Source: Candidatus Wolfebacteria bacterium (GTDB taxonomy: Bacteria; Patescibacteriota; Minisyncoccia; Phycocordibacterales; NVSU01). Taken from it: a DNA stretch of 64,000 bases. Shown here piece by piece: positions 1 through 63,826 of this stretch; position 1 is the stretch's first letter, and every line of letters begins with the position of its first letter. The stretch covers positions 68,476 to 132,475 of the forward strand of contig NVSU01000001.1 in NCBI GenBank assembly GCA_002401345.1, read 5' to 3'. Below the pieces are notes generated by a model. The model was not told where the DNA came from, ran no database searches, and worked only from the letters and a program-made list of their open reading frames with translations. Position numbers and translations under genes: made by a program.

Positions 1-721
1 TCTTTACTGACTCATTATGCATGTAAATATTACGAAGAAGTTCAATTCTTAGCTCTCGATATTCTTTATAGAATTTTTTAGTAATTGTTTCTTCCTCAGT
101 ACGAATATCAGAAAGAAGTTCTTCCGTTTTTGTTTTCCCAGATTTTGAAGTGAAATTTTCTGCATTAAGCAGAAAATAAAACTTTCGAAATTCGTAATAA
201 TCATCTTCAGGATTAACTAAATCATCGAGTGTCCAAATTTCATAATCTAATTGATTATCTTGAAAAAGTCTGAATTCGTAAAAGTTTGACGCAAGAACAA
301 AAGGAGAATGTGAGTATTGTATTTTATATTTAAATGCCTGCTGGATTGGACTCATGTTCCCTACTCTCTGTTGAGGACGATCAAGAGGAACACTGGCACC
401 CTTTAATTCGACAACGGACGAAACCTTGCTAATTTCTTTATCAAAATATCCTAGTACTACATCTGGTAATTGACCCTGCTCAGTAGTAGCTTTGGGTTCT
501 AGTGTATAAGGAGAATTTGGCTTTTCTGAATAACCCAAAACTTTTATGAAAAAATCTTGATTAAATGCCTGCTCTCGTGATGTTTCCTTATCTTGCTTAA
601 GAGTTCCGTGATGATAGTCCTTATCCCACTTTTTAATTATCTCAAGTTTTTCATCAAAATCAGGAATATCAAAATTCTCTAATTTTCTTTTTACTATTCT
701 ATTCTTGAAAATTGGAGCCAC
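1..721 (-). CDS. Type IIL (MmeI-family) restriction-modification enzyme, N-terminal nuclease region; partial, continues beyond window start
   Basis: I translated the minus-strand frame by hand. It is open from a GTG at 721 to the window edge. It shows a PD-(D/E)xK-like motif (PDVVLGYFD...VVELKG). The segment SPFVLASNFYEFRLF matches MmeI PRYVLVCDFQRFRL. The N-terminal ...QAFNQDFFIKVLGY resembles MmeI ...FLIDFFEVFGI. The six-frame track missed it because it has no stop within the window. Confidence 0.5.
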   Translation of the reverse strand, partial: MAPIFKNRIVKRKLENFDIPDFDEKLEIIKKWDKDYHHGTLKQDKETSREQAFNQDFFIKVLGYSEKPNSPYTLEPKATTEQGQLPDVVLGYFDKEISKVSSVVELKGASVPLDRPQQRVGNMSPIQQAFKYKIQYSHSPFVLASNFYEFRLFQDNQLDYEIWTLDDLVNPEDDYYEFRKFYFLLNAENFTSKSGKTKTEELLSDIRTEEETITKKFYKEYRELRIELLRNIYMHNESVK

Positions 722-6018: not shown

Positions 6019-8067
6019 TTATTTCTGCAGCATATCAACGATAAATGCATAGATAAATGCGGCTTCTTTTAAATATTCATACCTACCTGATGATCCGCCG
6101 TGGCCGGCCCCCATATTTGTCTTTAATAAGAGCGTATTATTATCTGTTTTCATATCACGTAATTTGGCCACCCATTTTGCAGGCTCCCAATATTGCACAC
6201 GAGGATCATTAAGCCCTCCAAGTACCAACATGTGTGGATAGTCTTTAGCTTCTATATTGTCATACGGAGAATATGACAATATATATTCATAATTTTTCTT
6301 TTCATTTGGATCACCCCATTCTTCATATTCTGCAATAGTAAGCGGAAGTGTCGGATCCATCATTGTATTTATCACATCGACAAATGGCACATCGGCTACC
6401 ACTGCATTAAATAGATCGGGTCTCATATTACTCACCGCGCCCATGAGCAGTCCCCCTGCACTTCCTCCCCAAATTGCGAGTGACTCTGGTGCAGTATAGT
6501 CTTCTTTAATCAAATGCTCTGCACATGCGATGAAATCAGTGAATGTATTTTTCTTGTTTAAATATTTACCCTGTTCATACCAGTGCTCTCCCAGTTCACT
6601 TCCTCCTCGAATGTGGGCTATGACATATACAAAACCTCTATCCAGAAGACTAATAATATTAGAAGAAAAATATGGATTACTTGAAATCCCATAGGAGCCA
6701 TATCCAGTGAGCAACAGAGGATTCGCTTCATTCTTTTTGTACAGATCTTTTTTATAGACCACTGACATAGGTATTTCTTCATTGTCGGGTGCGCGAGCAA
6801 CAATTCGTTTTGCAATGTAGTCATCTTTGTTAAATCCACCGAGCACTTCTTTTTGTTTTTTAAGCTCTTGTGTTCGTGCTTCCATATCATACTCAAAGAC
6901 AGAACTCGGAGTAGTTAATGATGAATATGAATAACGCAGCGTATTAGTATTAAAATCAGGATTACTTGATACTCCTACTGTATATACTTCTTCTGGAAAT
7001 GGTATGAAGTGATGTGTGTCATCTAGTACATTAATTATATTAATCTTCTCCAAACCTTTTTCGCGCTGTGATATTACAAGGTACTCTTTAAATAAATCTA
7101 TATCTGTAATGCTTATATTGTCATCATGAGCAATCACTTCTTTCCAATTTTCCTTTGTGGGTGTCTCAACTGATGTTTTCATCACCTTAAAATTTAACGC
7201 GTTCTTATTCGTTCGTATATAAAAAGTATCGCCATGATGGTGAACGTAATATTCTATTCCCTTTTCCCGAGGTTGAATGATCTCAAACTGACTCGTCGGC
7301 TCATCGGCATCCATAGCGCGTACTTCCGAAGTAACTTTACTTCCAGATAAAATCATAATATATTTTTCTGTTCGAGTTTTATATAAGTTAACGAAAAACT
7401 TTCCATCGGGTTCATGAAACATCATTGTATCTTCCTTTGTGTCGGTCCCAAGGGTATGTCGATACACTTTATGCGGTCGTTTGGTTTCATCCAATACCGA
7501 ATAGAAGAATGTCTGACTATCATTGATCCATTCAAAAGAATGATATGTGTGTGTTATCTGGTCACTCAAAAGCTCTCCTGTGTCTAGATTCTTTATAAAA
7601 ATCGTATATTCTTCTGATCCATTGGTATCGACCGAATATGCGAGCAGTGAGTGATCGGGACTCACATCAAATACACCCAATTGAAAATATTCATATCCTT
7701 CGGCAAGAATGTTTTGATCTAACAGTATTTCTTCGGCTGAGTCGAGTGATTCTTTTTTTCGAGCATATATTGGATATTGTTTCCCTTCTTCTGTTCTCGT
7801 ATAGTAATAATAGTTATCAATTTTCACTGGAACTGACATGTCAGTTTCCTTGATTCTTCCTTTCATTTCCTTGTAGAGTTGTGCCTGTGCATCTTCTGTA
7901 TCTTTCATTATCTCTTTAGTGTATGTATTTTCATCTTTAAGATACGTAATGACTTCAGGGTTTGTTTTTTCTCGCAGCCAAAAATACTCATCGATTCGTG
8001 TATCACCATGATACACCGTCTCATGAGGAATTTTCTTTGCTTTTGGAGGTTGTGGTTTATTGTTCAT
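6019..8067 (-). CDS. ptrB: Oligopeptidase B / prolyl oligopeptidase family S9A
   Basis: 682 aa. Beta-propeller N-half, GGSAGGLLMGAV serine motif, and YFWLREKTNPEVITYLKDEN N-terminal signature. Confidence 0.85.
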   Translation of the reverse strand: MNNKPQPPKAKKIPHETVYHGDTRIDEYFWLREKTNPEVITYLKDENTYTKEIMKDTEDAQAQLYKEMKGRIKETDMSVPVKIDNYYYYTRTEEGKQYPIYARKKESLDSAEEILLDQNILAEGYEYFQLGVFDVSPDHSLLAYSVDTNGSEEYTIFIKNLDTGELLSDQITHTYHSFEWINDSQTFFYSVLDETKRPHKVYRHTLGTDTKEDTMMFHEPDGKFFVNLYKTRTEKYIMILSGSKVTSEVRAMDADEPTSQFEIIQPREKGIEYYVHHHGDTFYIRTNKNALNFKVMKTSVETPTKENWKEVIAHDDNISITDIDLFKEYLVISQREKGLEKINIINVLDDTHHFIPFPEEVYTVGVSSNPDFNTNTLRYSYSSLTTPSSVFEYDMEARTQELKKQKEVLGGFNKDDYIAKRIVARAPDNEEIPMSVVYKKDLYKKNEANPLLLTGYGSYGISSNPYFSSNIISLLDRGFVYVIAHIRGGSELGEHWYEQGKYLNKKNTFTDFIACAEHLIKEDYTAPESLAIWGGSAGGLLMGAVSNMRPDLFNAVVADVPFVDVINTMMDPTLPLTIAEYEEWGDPNEKKNYEYILSYSPYDNIEAKDYPHMLVLGGLNDPRVQYWEPAKWVAKLRDMKTDNNTLLLKTNMGAGHGGSSGRYEYLKEAAFIYAFIVDMLQK

Positions 8068-57638: not shown

Positions 57639-58328
57639 CTACTTTTTATTTTTTGTCAAAAAATGTTTGACTGAATTCTTGAGCTCCATTAATTTCTCAA
57701 GATCATTGGGGCCATTTTCATATTGTTTGTCTTCTCGTATTTCATCAGTTAAATAATCACTTCTATATACAGAATTACCAAAATCAATTATCACCGGTCT
57801 TCCCGTTTTGTTATCAATCATAATATTTCTATCTGCCACGTCTCGATGATATATCCCAATGCGCTCACTGTGCATTGCATCAAAAAATTTCTCAAGTGCG
57901 GCAAAAAAGCTGTCGAAATTAAATGTATCTGGGAGCTCTTTTTTGCCAGTTAAAATTTCTTGAAAATCAGGACCATCAATTCTTTCCATGGATAAAATTT
58001 TTCTATATAGGGGAGGTTTATTCTTTTGCGGTATTTTTGCATCAAAGCTAAATGCTGGCTTAGGAACAATGACCTCATTACTTAGTTCTGTAAGTTTGGA
58101 TAAGAATTTCGCTTCCTCATGAACGTCATTAAGTGCATCTCGAACAATTACTTTGTGGGCCAAATTATTTTCTTTATCCTCATACACAAATGCAGATTGT
58201 CCAAATCCAATCTCAAATTCTTTTTTGATTATTTGTTCAGCGGACCTTTCTATTTGATCCAGCTCTTCCGGTGATATCTCTTTTTCTAGACCACTTTGAA
58301 ATTTTGTAATTCTAAATTTTTCGAACAT
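57639..58328 (-). CDS. Minimal eukaryotic-like protein kinase-fold protein (RD-kinase-like; RIO/Bud32/LPS-kinase size)
   Basis: Gly-loop GFGQSAFVY. Lys in LAHKVIV. Catalytic loop HRDVADRNIMID. DFG in IIDFGNS. Only 229 aa. Confidence 0.5.
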   Translation of the reverse strand: MFEKFRITKFQSGLEKEISPEELDQIERSAEQIIKKEFEIGFGQSAFVYEDKENNLAHKVIVRDALNDVHEEAKFLSKLTELSNEVIVPKPAFSFDAKIPQKNKPPLYRKILSMERIDGPDFQEILTGKKELPDTFNFDSFFAALEKFFDAMHSERIGIYHRDVADRNIMIDNKTGRPVIIDFGNSVYRSDYLTDEIREDKQYENGPNDLEKLMELKNSVKHFLTKNKK

Positions 58329-58347
58329 GTGTTATTTATTATATATG

Positions 58348-58567
58348 AAAAAGAAAAACCCTGCTGTTACATAGGGTTTTTCTTTTAGTTGTGGTCTTTG
58401 TTGGTTAAGGTCAGGACTCATTTTCAGGAGAACCCCGATTCGGATTTCTAAGGAAATTTCGCCCAACGGGAATTCTGGACCCCCAAGCAGAATTTCCGTT
58501 GGGCGTAAAACCCACCCGGCACTGATCTCTGAGTGGTTGAAATTTAAATTTCTAGACCTGTACTAAT
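58348..58567 (-). ncRNA. GC-rich structured intergenic region ending in a terminator hairpin, 20-30 nt upstream of the kinase-like gene (riboswitch-like leader or ncRNA)
   Basis: 17-bp stem GCCCAACGGGAATTCTG...CAGAATTTCCGTTGGGC (58462-58508). Terminator AACCCTGCTGTTACATAGGGTT + T-run (58352-58378). Local GC is much higher than the flanks. Confidence 0.35.
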
Positions 58568-59314
58568 CTAGATTATTCCCCAAAAATGGTTTATGAAAAT
58601 GGCGCTTATAATATTGCCGAGTATAACAACTACTAACGCAACTACTCCATACCAAAAGAATTTGCTTGAAAAACTTTCTTTGGGGCTTAGAATCTTTCCT
58701 GCAGACCCACTGTTTTCACCAATGTTTCCATGGAAATTTTCTATACTACCAATATTAAACTTTGATTCTATATTTTGTGCTTTTTCTTTCTCTTCCAGAG
58801 TGAATTCCGCCCCCTCTCCTTGAACATCTTGTTTTTCTAATTTTATAGCCCAATCTAGAAGATTGTTTCTGACTACATTCAATATTCCAACAAGAGCTGA
58901 TCTATCAATAAATAATGAAACTTTTGTTTTGACAGGTGAGTCTTTTAATATTTCATTTGCTGATGAAGCAGAGTATGGCATTTCATAACTATCTGACTTA
59001 TTAGAAATAAGCTCCTCAATCTCACTAATAGACTGATTAGCTCGTCTAGATGATATTGTTCTTTCTATGTCAGATTTTTTAAAAAGCACTGGAACCCACC
59101 CCTGGTAAGGATTCCATGCTTTGACCTGACCTGGCATATTTCTATAATCTGGATATGCACTACTGTCCTTATAGCCATTAAGTTCCAATTCAATCCAACT
59201 GAGAAAATCCACTTGATCTAATTTACTCGCCAAAACTTTAACCTCCATAAGTAAACTAGAAACGGAGAGACTATGGTCTTGGATTTTTTTAATGAATTCT
59301 TGAACTTTTGTCAT
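58568..59314 (-). CDS. Membrane-anchored hypothetical protein with an N-terminal domain reminiscent of abortive-infection AbiTii-type proteins
   Basis: LLMEVKVLASKLDQVDFLSWIELELNGY resembles my recollection of the AbiTii N-terminal helix. C-terminal TM. Low-confidence family call. Confidence 0.3.
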   Translation of the reverse strand: MTKVQEFIKKIQDHSLSVSSLLMEVKVLASKLDQVDFLSWIELELNGYKDSSAYPDYRNMPGQVKAWNPYQGWVPVLFKKSDIERTISSRRANQSISEIEELISNKSDSYEMPYSASSANEILKDSPVKTKVSLFIDRSALVGILNVVRNNLLDWAIKLEKQDVQGEGAEFTLEEKEKAQNIESKFNIGSIENFHGNIGENSGSAGKILSPKESFSSKFFWYGVVALVVVILGNIISAIFINHFWGII

Positions 59315-62569: not shown

Positions 62570-63037
62570 ATGAATAATAATAGACAAATTATCTCCTGGA
62601 GTGCTCATGAATATGAACACCGAGAGAAAAGACCCGATTGGTTTTGGGCACTCGGTGTCATTGCGGTCTCAGGAACAGTCGCCTCAATAATTTTTGGAAA
62701 TTTCCTGTTCGCAATTTTTATTGTTCTTGGAACAATTCTTCTTGGATACTACAGTATAAAAAAACCCGACCTCCTTGAATTTCAAATAAATGAAAAAGGT
62801 ATTCAAATTGAAGATATGTTGTATCCATACACTACAATAAAGTCTTTTTGGATAGACAGCGATGAAACAAAACACAACCTTCTTATTCATGTAGACAGAC
62901 TATTCATGCCTATAGTAACATTGCCACTTGCTGACATTCCTGAGAATGAGCTCCATGAAGTATTGAGTATAGTGATACCTGAAAAAGAATTGAGAGAACC
63001 ACTCCCTCATAAAATAATGCAGTATTTAGGATTCTAA
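62570..63037 (+). CDS. Membrane protein, hypothetical
   Basis: 155 aa with two TM helices. Confidence 0.4.
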   Translation: MNNNRQIISWSAHEYEHREKRPDWFWALGVIAVSGTVASIIFGNFLFAIFIVLGTILLGYYSIKKPDLLEFQINEKGIQIEDMLYPYTTIKSFWIDSDETKHNLLIHVDRLFMPIVTLPLADIPENELHEVLSIVIPEKELREPLPHKIMQYLGF

Positions 63038-63173
63038 CTCTCAATAGAATCTCAAGAATATTGTACTACTGCTCTCGTCGTCCTCGATATGACATCAAAA
63101 TTTATATTTTGGTCATATCGGGATTCAACGTCCCGTAGAAGGAGAACAAGTTCCCAACGGGGCACAGTAGAAC

Positions 63174-63245
63174 GCTTCCATAGTTTAACGGATAAAATTC
63201 ATCCTTGCGGAGGATGTGCTCCAGGTTCGATTCCTGGTGGAAGCA
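63174..63245 (+). tRNA. tRNA-Arg (anticodon GCG, unusual for bacteria)
   Basis: Acceptor GCTTCCA/TGGAAGC. D arm GTTT-AACGGATA-AAAT. Anticodon stem-loop CATCC-TTGCGGA-GGATG. T arm CCAGG-TTCGATT-CCTGG. Discriminator A. Confidence 0.7.
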
Positions 63246-63447
63246 CACGAACAAAGTGAGTATGGTTTCGAAAGGAATCGAACAGGAAGGGGGTCGGGCG
63301 TAGATTTTGTTATGAGGAACGAATTACAAAATAAAGTGCAGAGCTAAAATCTAGTTTCCCTACGAAGGAAGGAATGGGAAAACCGTGGGTTTCCCAGAAG
63401 TGAGATAGCCAGCCTCGACTGGACGTAAAGTCTAGGCGGGCGAAGCG

Positions 63448-63465
63448 TCCTGGTGGAAGCACACG
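63448..63465 (+). repeat. 18-nt direct repeat of the tRNA-Arg(GCG) 3' end (TCCTGGTGGAAGCACACG; first copy 63232-63249)
   Basis: Exact 18/18 match 216 nt downstream of the tRNA. The segment between is GC-rich. Confidence 0.5.
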
Positions 63466-63515
63466 TAGTTAGATTTTTACTCGCCACAGTGTTAGTGGCG
63501 GACCTACTAAGCCTA

Positions 63516-63545
63516 AAATAAAAAAACTCCCAGATGGGAGTTTTT
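63516..63545 (-). terminator. Bidirectional intrinsic terminator (AACTCCCA-gat-GGGAGTT)
   Basis: Perfect hairpin with A and T runs on either side. Confidence 0.65.
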
Positions 63546-63562
63546 TATTTTATATAACTTTA

Positions 63563-63826
63563 TTATTCAGATTGTGCCCATTCTTTGAGTTTATCGTAGT
63601 CAACCTCTCCGCAAATAAACTGCTTGGATTTCGTGTTGAAGAAAAAAGGTACTCCTCCGCACAACTCTTTATCATACTCTTCCATTTTCTTTTGATTCTC
63701 CTTATCATGCCACACCTCAAATGCATCCACACTAATATCCAACTCTTTTTCAAGTTGCTCAATAAGGTCGTGCATCCTCACACAATGTGGGCACTCTTTC
63801 CCATAAAATTCTAATAGGTGATTCAT
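63563..63826 (-). CDS. Glutaredoxin-like / thioredoxin-fold small protein (CPHC active site)
   Basis: YGKECPHCVRMHDLIEQL. Confidence 0.7.
   Translation of the reverse strand: MNHLLEFYGKECPHCVRMHDLIEQLEKELDISVDAFEVWHDKENQKKMEEYDKELCGGVPFFFNTKSKQFICGEVDYDKLKEWAQSE

Follow-up and report, generated by a model that had tools for sequence, protein, structure and literature searches.

Downstream of the gene for tRNA-Arg(GCG), a 64-kb stretch of DNA from a Candidatus Wolfebacteria bacterium (the window in the following) contains a 216-nt insert that duplicates the 3' end of the tRNA and probably descends from a group I intron. The tRNA gene itself (63174-63245 on the plus strand, like the parts of the repeat and insert described below) is complete and uninterrupted as encoded, and it is recognized by ARAGORN and by the Rfam family RF00005 with 60.1 bits. 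Its 3' end is part of an 18-nt sequence, TCCTGGTGGAAGCACACG, that is found at 63232-63249 and again at 63448-63465, and our repeat search confirmed that both copies are exact, as claimed in a preliminary description of the locus. No third copy exists in the window even if up to three mismatches are permitted, and two matches were obtained in 0 of 100 shuffles. The first copy comprises the last base of the T-loop (nucleotide 7), the 3' strands of T-stem and acceptor, the discriminator and the four trailer bases CACG, all of which belong to tRNA-Arg(GCG). The edges of the repeat are sharp, with T preceding copy 1 and G preceding copy 2, followed by A and T, respectively, and once the 18-mer is masked, the two halves share no similarity above that of shuffles. 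The window contains five more tRNA genes, none of which has a comparable duplication of its 3' end. As also noted in the preliminary description, the 198 nt between the copies are richer in GC than their surroundings (47.0% compared to 34.7% for the window, a value reached by 0.8% of all 198-nt windows). This GC content (47%) equals that of the tRNA, and the segment is strongly biased towards purines on the tRNA strand (65%). It contains no credible open reading frame (ORF), only short overlapping ones. Including one copy of the repeat, the insert extends to 216 nt (63232-63447, 48% GC), and it is followed by a predicted bidirectional intrinsic terminator (63521-63546), which likely forms the 3' end of the joint transcript of tRNA and insert and of a convergent thioredoxin-like gene.

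The history of the site is illuminated by its relatives. The ORF upstream of the tRNA (62570-63037), with weak resemblance to DUF5673, is 100% identical to COB64_00715 of the Candidatus Wolfebacteria bacterium metagenome-assembled genome, and since its next homologues share at most 57% identity, no close relative has been sampled. The order of tRNA-Ser(TGA), the DUF5673-like gene and tRNA-Arg(GCG) is kept in four distinct loci from other lineages (on six contigs), where a terminator or the next gene directly follows the tRNA without insert: the next gene starts after 22 nt in L097, a convergent gene lies 16 nt past the tRNA in L004, L005 and L099, and a terminator-like hairpin succeeds the tRNA in L002 and L003. 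In none of the relatives examined is there a second copy of the 3' end of the respective tRNA. Because the relatives keep the gene order without insert or second 3' end, the 216 nt are a lineage-specific insertion. The empty site that the preliminary description had suggested to look for is thus found, with a single 3' end in the same gene order, and the duplicated arrangement, which it had also considered for relatives, is shared by none of them. In a further contig (L007, 3473-3545), tRNA-Arg(GCG) is inverted relative to the conserved upstream gene, which implies repeated rearrangement of this junction. Two other assemblies (ENA and JGI) are 100% identical to the window over 600 nt at the site (63000-63600), and a third (Logan) agrees over the 311 nt that it covers. 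In light of this identity a gross misassembly is unlikely, though all assemblies come from the same environment. Both Logan contigs of the run SRR5988120 (loci L010 and L136) stop inside the insert with a mutual overlap of just 27 nt (63290-63316). The break, which is read through in the two other assemblies, coincides with the start of the candidate guide sequence described below, and it suggests a branch in the assembly graph caused by either variation within the population or a second copy with this stretch in common.

Given the repeat of 18 nt, the insert can be drawn in 19 registers. Group I introns are preceded by a U at the end of the 5' exon and terminate with a G (omega-G), and a single register, 63232-63447, combines both features (U63231, G63447). 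This register places the insert between nucleotides 6 and 7 of the T-loop (UUCGAU/U), with a candidate 5' exon at 63174-63231 (tRNA nucleotides 1-59), copy 1 of the repeat as the first 18 nt of the insert, and copy 2 consisting of the candidate 3' exon (tRNA nucleotides 60-73) and the CACG trailer. The same site, known as 'position 7', the same U at position -1 and the same terminal G characterize T-loop introns of transfer-messenger RNA (tmRNA) genes, where 883 unique intron-containing sequences were all found to carry group I introns in the T-loop, most of them at position 7 (PMC11915505), following an earlier account of 343 tmRNA genes with such introns (Williams 2020, bioRxiv 10.1101/2020.01.27.920355).

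A candidate internal guide sequence is located at 63289-63299 (GGGG/GUCGGGC). Its second part would form a P1 helix of 7 bp with the end of the 5' exon (GUUCGAU), containing a G63293·U63231 wobble at the splice site, and its first part a contiguous P10 with UCCU at the start of the 3' exon, or with the equivalent bases at the insert's own 5' end. A guide pairing contiguously with both exons is thus present, though at an atypical distance of 57 nt from the 5' splice site. Further upstream, AGGAAUCGAAC (63273-63283), detected by repeat search and blastn, is a perfect 11-nt Watson-Crick complement of GUUCGAUUCCU in the tRNA (63225-63235, -15.1 kcal/mol), a target that covers the T-loop and the start of the 3' T-stem and hence the exon junction, 37 nt ahead of the complement. 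It differs from the guide solely by A/G changes opposite U. The resulting helix, in which U63231 would alternatively pair with A63277, is stronger than the candidate P1 with which it competes, and it dominates the minimum free energy (MFE) fold of the 377-nt transcript (z = -4.6). We have rejected it as P1 since it is devoid of a G·U wobble. A hairpin with GNRA tetraloop in the MFE fold (UGGUUUC-GAAA-GGAAUCG, 63263-63280, -4.5 kcal/mol) competes with the T-loop complement for 63273-63280.

The region downstream of the guide can be arranged in the order of a group I core. One nucleotide after the guide, UAGAU (63301-63305) would initiate a weak P3-like helix with AUCUA (63349-63353), proposed from repeat search and pair list, which encloses a single AU-rich hairpin and the 5' strand of a candidate P7 (63301-63353 in total). 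The hairpin, ATTTTGTTAT / ATTACAAAAT with a 9-nt loop (63304-63332), emerged from the repeat search, is part of the MFE fold and occupies the place of P4, P5 and P6. The P7 strands were identified by alignment with known introns and by the descriptor test detailed below. AAGUGCAGAG-CUA (63334-63346) resembles J6/7 and the 5' strand of P7 (the 'R' element), and the 3' strand of P3 begins 2 nt after it; GAAGUGAGA-UAG-CC (63397-63410) resembles J8/7 and the 3' strand of P7 (the 'S' element). At the 5' strand, known introns contain C or U followed by AGAGACUA, from which the insert is one base short, and the 3' side within 63400-63410 reads GUGAGAUAG-CC, one base short of the invariant UAGUCC. The two deletions, of an A in the AGAGACUA strand and of a U in the UAGUCC strand, are compensatory, in that exactly one A:U pair is gone from P7. 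The remaining pairs are G63341:C63410, G63343:C63409, C63344:G63408, U63345:A63407 and A63346:U63406, with A63342 bulged, and this P7 thus displays the bulge, the G-C pair of the guanosine site and a J8/7 strand ending in GUGAGA, in a helix that all compared introns exceed by one base pair. A P8-like hairpin UGGGAAAACC / GGGUUUCCCA (63375-63396, -7.4 kcal/mol), found by repeat search and in the MFE fold, lies between the P7 strands. P3 and P8 follow in the right order with about 21 extra nucleotides between them. The MFE fold contains a P9-like hairpin (GCCU-C-GACU / AGUC-U-AGGC with an 8-nt loop, 63412-63437, -11.7 kcal/mol), from which a 10-nt tail leads to G63447, the candidate omega-G. The stretch GUGCAGAGCUAAAAUCUA (63336-63353), which covers the P7 5' and P3 3' strands, also pairs at 14 of 18 positions with UAGAUUUUUACUCGCCAC (63470-63487) in the flank just past copy 2 of the repeat, possibly as an alternative conformation or by coincidence, and UAGAUUUU is found at both 63301 and 63470.

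How rarely such motifs arise by chance was quantified in two tests. A descriptor of P7, [CU]AGAG+X ... A.A+revcomp(X)+CC with 17 variants of X, was built from known introns of Patescibacteria, Anabaena and tmRNA genes. A single match is present in the insert, compared to matches in 16 of its 200,000 dinucleotide shuffles and none in 1.22 Mb of real background (126 kb of window and 1.09 Mb of unrelated loci). For the guide, the upstream part was shuffled and the downstream part kept fixed, with a 7-nt guide containing a G·U pair at -1 required within 3 nt of a correctly placed P3 of 5 bp; this arrangement was recovered in 3603 of 200,000 shuffles, a number that decreased to 145 if a contiguous P10 of 4 bp was included. 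Both tests were designed post hoc with the motifs already known, and the significance of these numbers is thus overstated, which weakens the case for a group I origin to this extent. Even if the significance is lowered by two or three orders of magnitude, a chance origin of the combination is unlikely, all the more so together with the U/G boundary and the location at a known T-loop subsite.

The properties of the insert can be related to two groups of known introns, for which we have relied on Table S3 of PMC13011429 and on tmRNA genes of phages. About 30 viral contigs from IMG/VR (L101-L133), some with many tRNA genes, carry tmRNA genes with T-loop group I introns, mostly between loop nucleotides 2 and 3 (L102 has its intron at 6866-7092) and in one case, L124 (6677-6919), between nucleotides 6 and 7; ARAGORN makes no call on these split genes. 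Beyond the shared site and boundary bases, the insert resembles the tmRNA introns in a guide that is complementary to the T-loop (GUCGGGC compared to GUCGC in the position-7 intron of L124), in the type of its P7 and J8/7 motif (GUGCAGAG(A)CUA ... GAGAUAG(U)CC), and in a P9 hairpin that is succeeded by a short tail and omega-G. In contrast to these introns, it resides in a tRNA gene, its P4-P6 and P2/P7.1 elements are absent or reduced, 57 nt including the copy of the 3' exon separate the 5' splice site from the guide, and the upstream gene is intact without splicing.

The second group is found in the same phylum. About 40% of the complete genomes of Patescibacteria contain group I introns, and those in tRNA genes have been described from the anticodon loop only (PMC13011429). 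With known lengths of 184-260 nt these belong to a similar size class, and some of them, like the insert, escape the Rfam group I model RF00028 (PMC13011429). The resemblance is most pronounced in the architecture past P6, where small tRNA-Asp introns of Microgenomatia contain UAAAUGUGUAGAGACUA...GAUGAGAUAGUCC and the insert AUAAAGUGCAGAG-CUA...AGUGAGAUAG-CC. Unlike the insert, the described introns interrupt the anticodon loop at positions from 32/33 to 38/39 (none at 37/38), and they possess a full core with P3-P9 and P4-P6 and no duplication of an exon.

Taken together, these features make it probable that the 216 nt at 63232-63447 constitute a degenerate element derived from a group I intron, which has become dispensable by duplication of its 3' exon. 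With similar confidence, we assign its ancestry to a position-7 intron of the T-loop, of the kind known from tmRNA genes, that has lost its P4-P6 scaffold. The features that appear to have been kept include a guide that can pair with either exon end, helices similar to P3, P8 and P9, a P7 in which both the bulged A and the G-C pair for guanosine binding are present, a strand similar to J8/7, and a terminal G. In group I introns the catalytic centre resides in the P3-P7 domain, with P4-P6 acting as scaffold (PMC6257700). The DNA would then encode a complete tRNA upstream of a ribozyme-like part, with the direct repeat consisting of the 3' exon and its copy. Most likely, transcription would start at the tRNA promoter and run through the entire unit up to the terminator at 63521-63546. 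The first 72 nt would adopt the tRNA fold at a time when the downstream strands that compete with it are yet to be made, the tRNA would mature by ordinary end processing without splicing, and the downstream RNA would be a dispensable by-product. Splicing, should any of it persist, would lead to the same tRNA. The duplication may stem from illegitimate recombination of an allele that carried the intron with one that did not. We note, as a speculation, that the junction CACG/AAC generates CGAAC, again a complement of the T-loop, as would fit a crossover within an original guide located close to the 5' end.

Several observations weigh against this interpretation. First, model-based searches did not recover the insert: scans against Rfam of a 1.7-kb region and of 261 nt gave no match to RF00028 at E<=10, with E-values multiplied by 4227 families so that a very weak match could be hidden, whereas the same model, used as positive control, assigned 86.5 and 66 bits to the genuine T-loop introns of the phage tmRNA genes L102 and L124. 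A profile hidden Markov model (nhmmer) of six tRNA introns of Patescibacteria found nothing in the window, and the insert scored at or below 0 bits with R1, a covariance model for which the 3' domains of six small introns had been used. A colinear alignment with cheap gaps to 12 known introns is not clearly above that of shuffles, which reached the observed values in 11 of 300 cases for the best score and in 80 of 300 for the mean. Second, P4, P5 and P6, which are present in every compared intron, are absent: the interval between P3 and P7 contains one hairpin of 8-10 bp within about 26 nt, compared to about 58 nt with all three helices in the smallest compared intron, a small one from Patescibacteria, and a search of the insert for an alternative P4 pairing was without result. 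In group I introns, P5-P4-P6 has been termed universally conserved (PMC6257700). Third, P3 and P7 are short, AU-rich and weak (about 0 kcal/mol each), the nested part of the proposed structure has an energy of about -37.5 kcal/mol compared to -79.5 kcal/mol for the MFE fold, and the fold of the insert alone is not more stable than that of shuffles (z = -0.82); the thermodynamics neither supports nor excludes a pseudoknotted model. Fourth, recombination at attachment (att) sites, and not intron biology, predicts an exact duplication of the 3' exon over 18 nt, the last 4 of which lie beyond the tRNA. Finally, no homologue of the insert was detected in any collection searched, which deprives the structure of support from covariation, and no further copy exists in the window, so that the evidence is that of one locus without homologues. 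A scan of metagenomes with a two-anchor pattern returned 19 chance matches, mostly in one phage antirepressor gene; one of the matched contigs (L018, about 470-720, minus strand) contains tandem units of about 55 nt (GCAGRGCTAAAATAGAGAG...CCTGYGGCAAAYCCRCAGG...) that resemble a repeat array and are unrelated to the insert. Since two of the defining features that we have tested are lacking, we refrain from filing the insert as a group I intron proper.

Other assignments of structural elements within the insert were considered and rejected. A P3 formed by 63285-63289 and 63355-63359 did not lead to the recovery of a P4-P6 domain, and AAUCGAACAGGAAG, as candidate for J3/4 and P4, has no 3' partner. 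Neither ARAGORN nor Rfam gave a signal for tmRNA, RNase P RNA, signal recognition particle RNA, 6S RNA, riboswitches or small ribozymes, which upholds the failure of the preliminary description to find a match to the first two, and the Rfam scan that it had proposed returned no passing family in the region besides tRNA. On the minus strand, 63260-63283 was considered as a further tRNA or the remnant of one and dismissed, as the arms of its T-stem are not complementary. Searches for terminal inverted repeats, as expected of a miniature inverted-repeat transposable element, and for a longer degenerate duplication around the 18-mer found none, in the latter case none above shuffles.

An exact direct repeat of 16-20 bp that extends from the T-arm to a few bases past the tRNA end is the classic footprint of genomic islands targeting tRNA genes. 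The insert could thus be the scar of, or itself be, a miniature integrative element, introduced by a tyrosine recombinase into the 3' end of tRNA-Arg with the 18-bp identity block as attL and attR, and either reduced later to 198 bp by internal deletion or always a tiny non-autonomous element mobilized in trans. The repeat of the 3' end with its few trailing bases and sharp boundaries, the complete tRNA on its left, the empty site in relatives and a composition unlike that of the host are all compatible with such an island, and ordinary intron biology leaves the duplication unexplained. In contrast to known islands, the cargo amounts to 198 bp and contains complementarity to the T-loop, and no integrase, recombinase or transposase is encoded by any of the window's 49 ORFs with a length of 170 aa or more, within the 198 bp, or in the 10 kb beyond the window, which hold genes for S20, RuvA, an HhH-GPD glycosylase, PolA and similar core proteins. 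An attP-like counterpart was equally missing, with 3 matches of the 18-mer in viral contigs and 17 in species-representative genomes (a collection that does not include the source genome), all of them single, in unrelated coding contexts of high GC and at about the number expected by chance, and those in the genomes all from unrelated taxa. Of three fragments of the insert that were compared to viral contigs, two had no match and the third had 45, nearly all at a ribosome-binding site in one unrelated phage family. An internal deletion that retains both repeats and removes all but 198 bp would itself be unlikely, and the 11-nt T-loop complement, the G·U-containing guide beside P3, the P7 and J8/7 pair and the U/G boundary would be left unexplained. 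The support for an att scar thus comes down to the repeat itself, and as it is the only model to predict this repeat, we regard it as unlikely but do not dismiss it. Of the insertion footprint proposed in the preliminary description, the insertion as such is borne out by the empty site and its attribution to att recombination has found no positive support, in the form of an integrase or an attP-like copy.

At the opposite end, the insert might have preserved function. In the laboratory, deletions of P4-P6 made by Ikawa et al. in 2000 reportedly retained weak activity under special conditions. The insert resembles such engineered ribozymes (cited in PMC6257700) in containing a putative P3-P7-type catalytic domain without P4-P6 scaffold, with the distinction that it is a natural RNA. 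We consider it improbable that it is an active, naturally minimal ribozyme of the group I type, perhaps with the body of the tRNA or a protein as scaffold. Such a ribozyme would be without precedent as a group I-type intron in the T-loop of a tRNA, equipped with its own spare 3' exon and leading to the same tRNA by splicing or by plain end processing, and it might be viewed as an 'optional intron' or as a captured intermediate of intron gain or loss.

A structured RNA transcribed together with the tRNA had been the second suggestion of the preliminary description. It fits the data better than an att scar. In its features, the RNA is closer to a degenerate group I intron than to tmRNA, RNase P RNA or a small regulatory RNA. 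A 3'-trailer RNA unrelated to group I introns, which pairs with the T-arm and, for example, modulates folding or processing of the tRNA, with the second 3' end serving as a processing or stability signal, would account for the 11-nt T-loop antisense that dominates the fold of the transcript, for several stable hairpins including one with GNRA loop, for the terminator at the end and for a composition resembling that of RNA genes. This possibility is nevertheless doubtful, as no Rfam family matches, the insert alone is no stabler than shuffles, and the lack of a homologue in any collection searched and of an insert in relatives means that conservation, the usual mark of function, is missing, and as it explains neither the pair of group I-like motifs nor the boundary bases. 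Equally doubtful is a neutral filler or piece of foreign DNA, acquired by illegitimate recombination or by a replication error that duplicated 18 bp, with coincidental intron-like motifs, which would be in accord with the single occurrence without homologues, the negative outcome of all model-based searches and the streamlined relatives without insert, and which is contradicted by the joint rarity of the P7 pair, the guide/P3/P10 arrangement and the 11-nt T-loop complement and by a boundary on a known T-loop intron subsite.

The wider surroundings contain further features. About 55 nt upstream of tRNA-Arg(GCG), at the place expected for a promoter, a perfect 9-bp inverted repeat, CGATATGAC ... 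GTCATATCG, flanks an AT-rich spacer of 18 nt (63085-63120). In relatives, ORFs for HNH (168 aa) or GIY-YIG (82 aa) proteins, both domains of the homing-endonuclease type, are located in the same tRNA-rich neighbourhood between tRNA-Ser(TGA) and the DUF5673-like gene (L004 2363-2869, L007 2485-2733, also in L005 and L099), where the window has no ORF. A gene of the AbiTii family (248 aa) and a small protein-kinase-like gene (57639-59314) adjoin a pair of genes for tRNA-Val and tRNA-Arg(TCT) and may represent an abortive-infection module in the Wolfebacteria genome. At about 21155-46179, a cluster of about 25 kb located nearly entirely on the minus strand encodes functions related to surface glycans, including glycosyltransferase, methyltransferase, epimerase, asparagine-synthase and polysaccharide-export proteins.

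In the literature searched, we have encountered no description of a group I-like element in the T-loop of a tRNA, of a natural core devoid of P4-P6 or of an intron accompanied by a copy of its 3' exon. The locus also illustrates that a direct repeat of a tRNA 3' end is by itself no proof of integrase activity. If our interpretation is correct, the invasion of T-loops by group I introns, which has so far been documented for tmRNA genes only, would extend to ordinary tRNA genes. Such elements would be missed by standard tRNA finders and by intron models, since the upstream tRNA has an intact appearance and so reduced a core is not recognized by RF00028. The insert would then offer a rare snapshot of an intron that is neutralized and decaying within the gene of an essential RNA, where the duplicated exon has made splicing unnecessary and the scaffold has subsequently been lost. 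Should the RNA still be active, it would provide a natural test of the minimal fold that is sufficient for a group I ribozyme.

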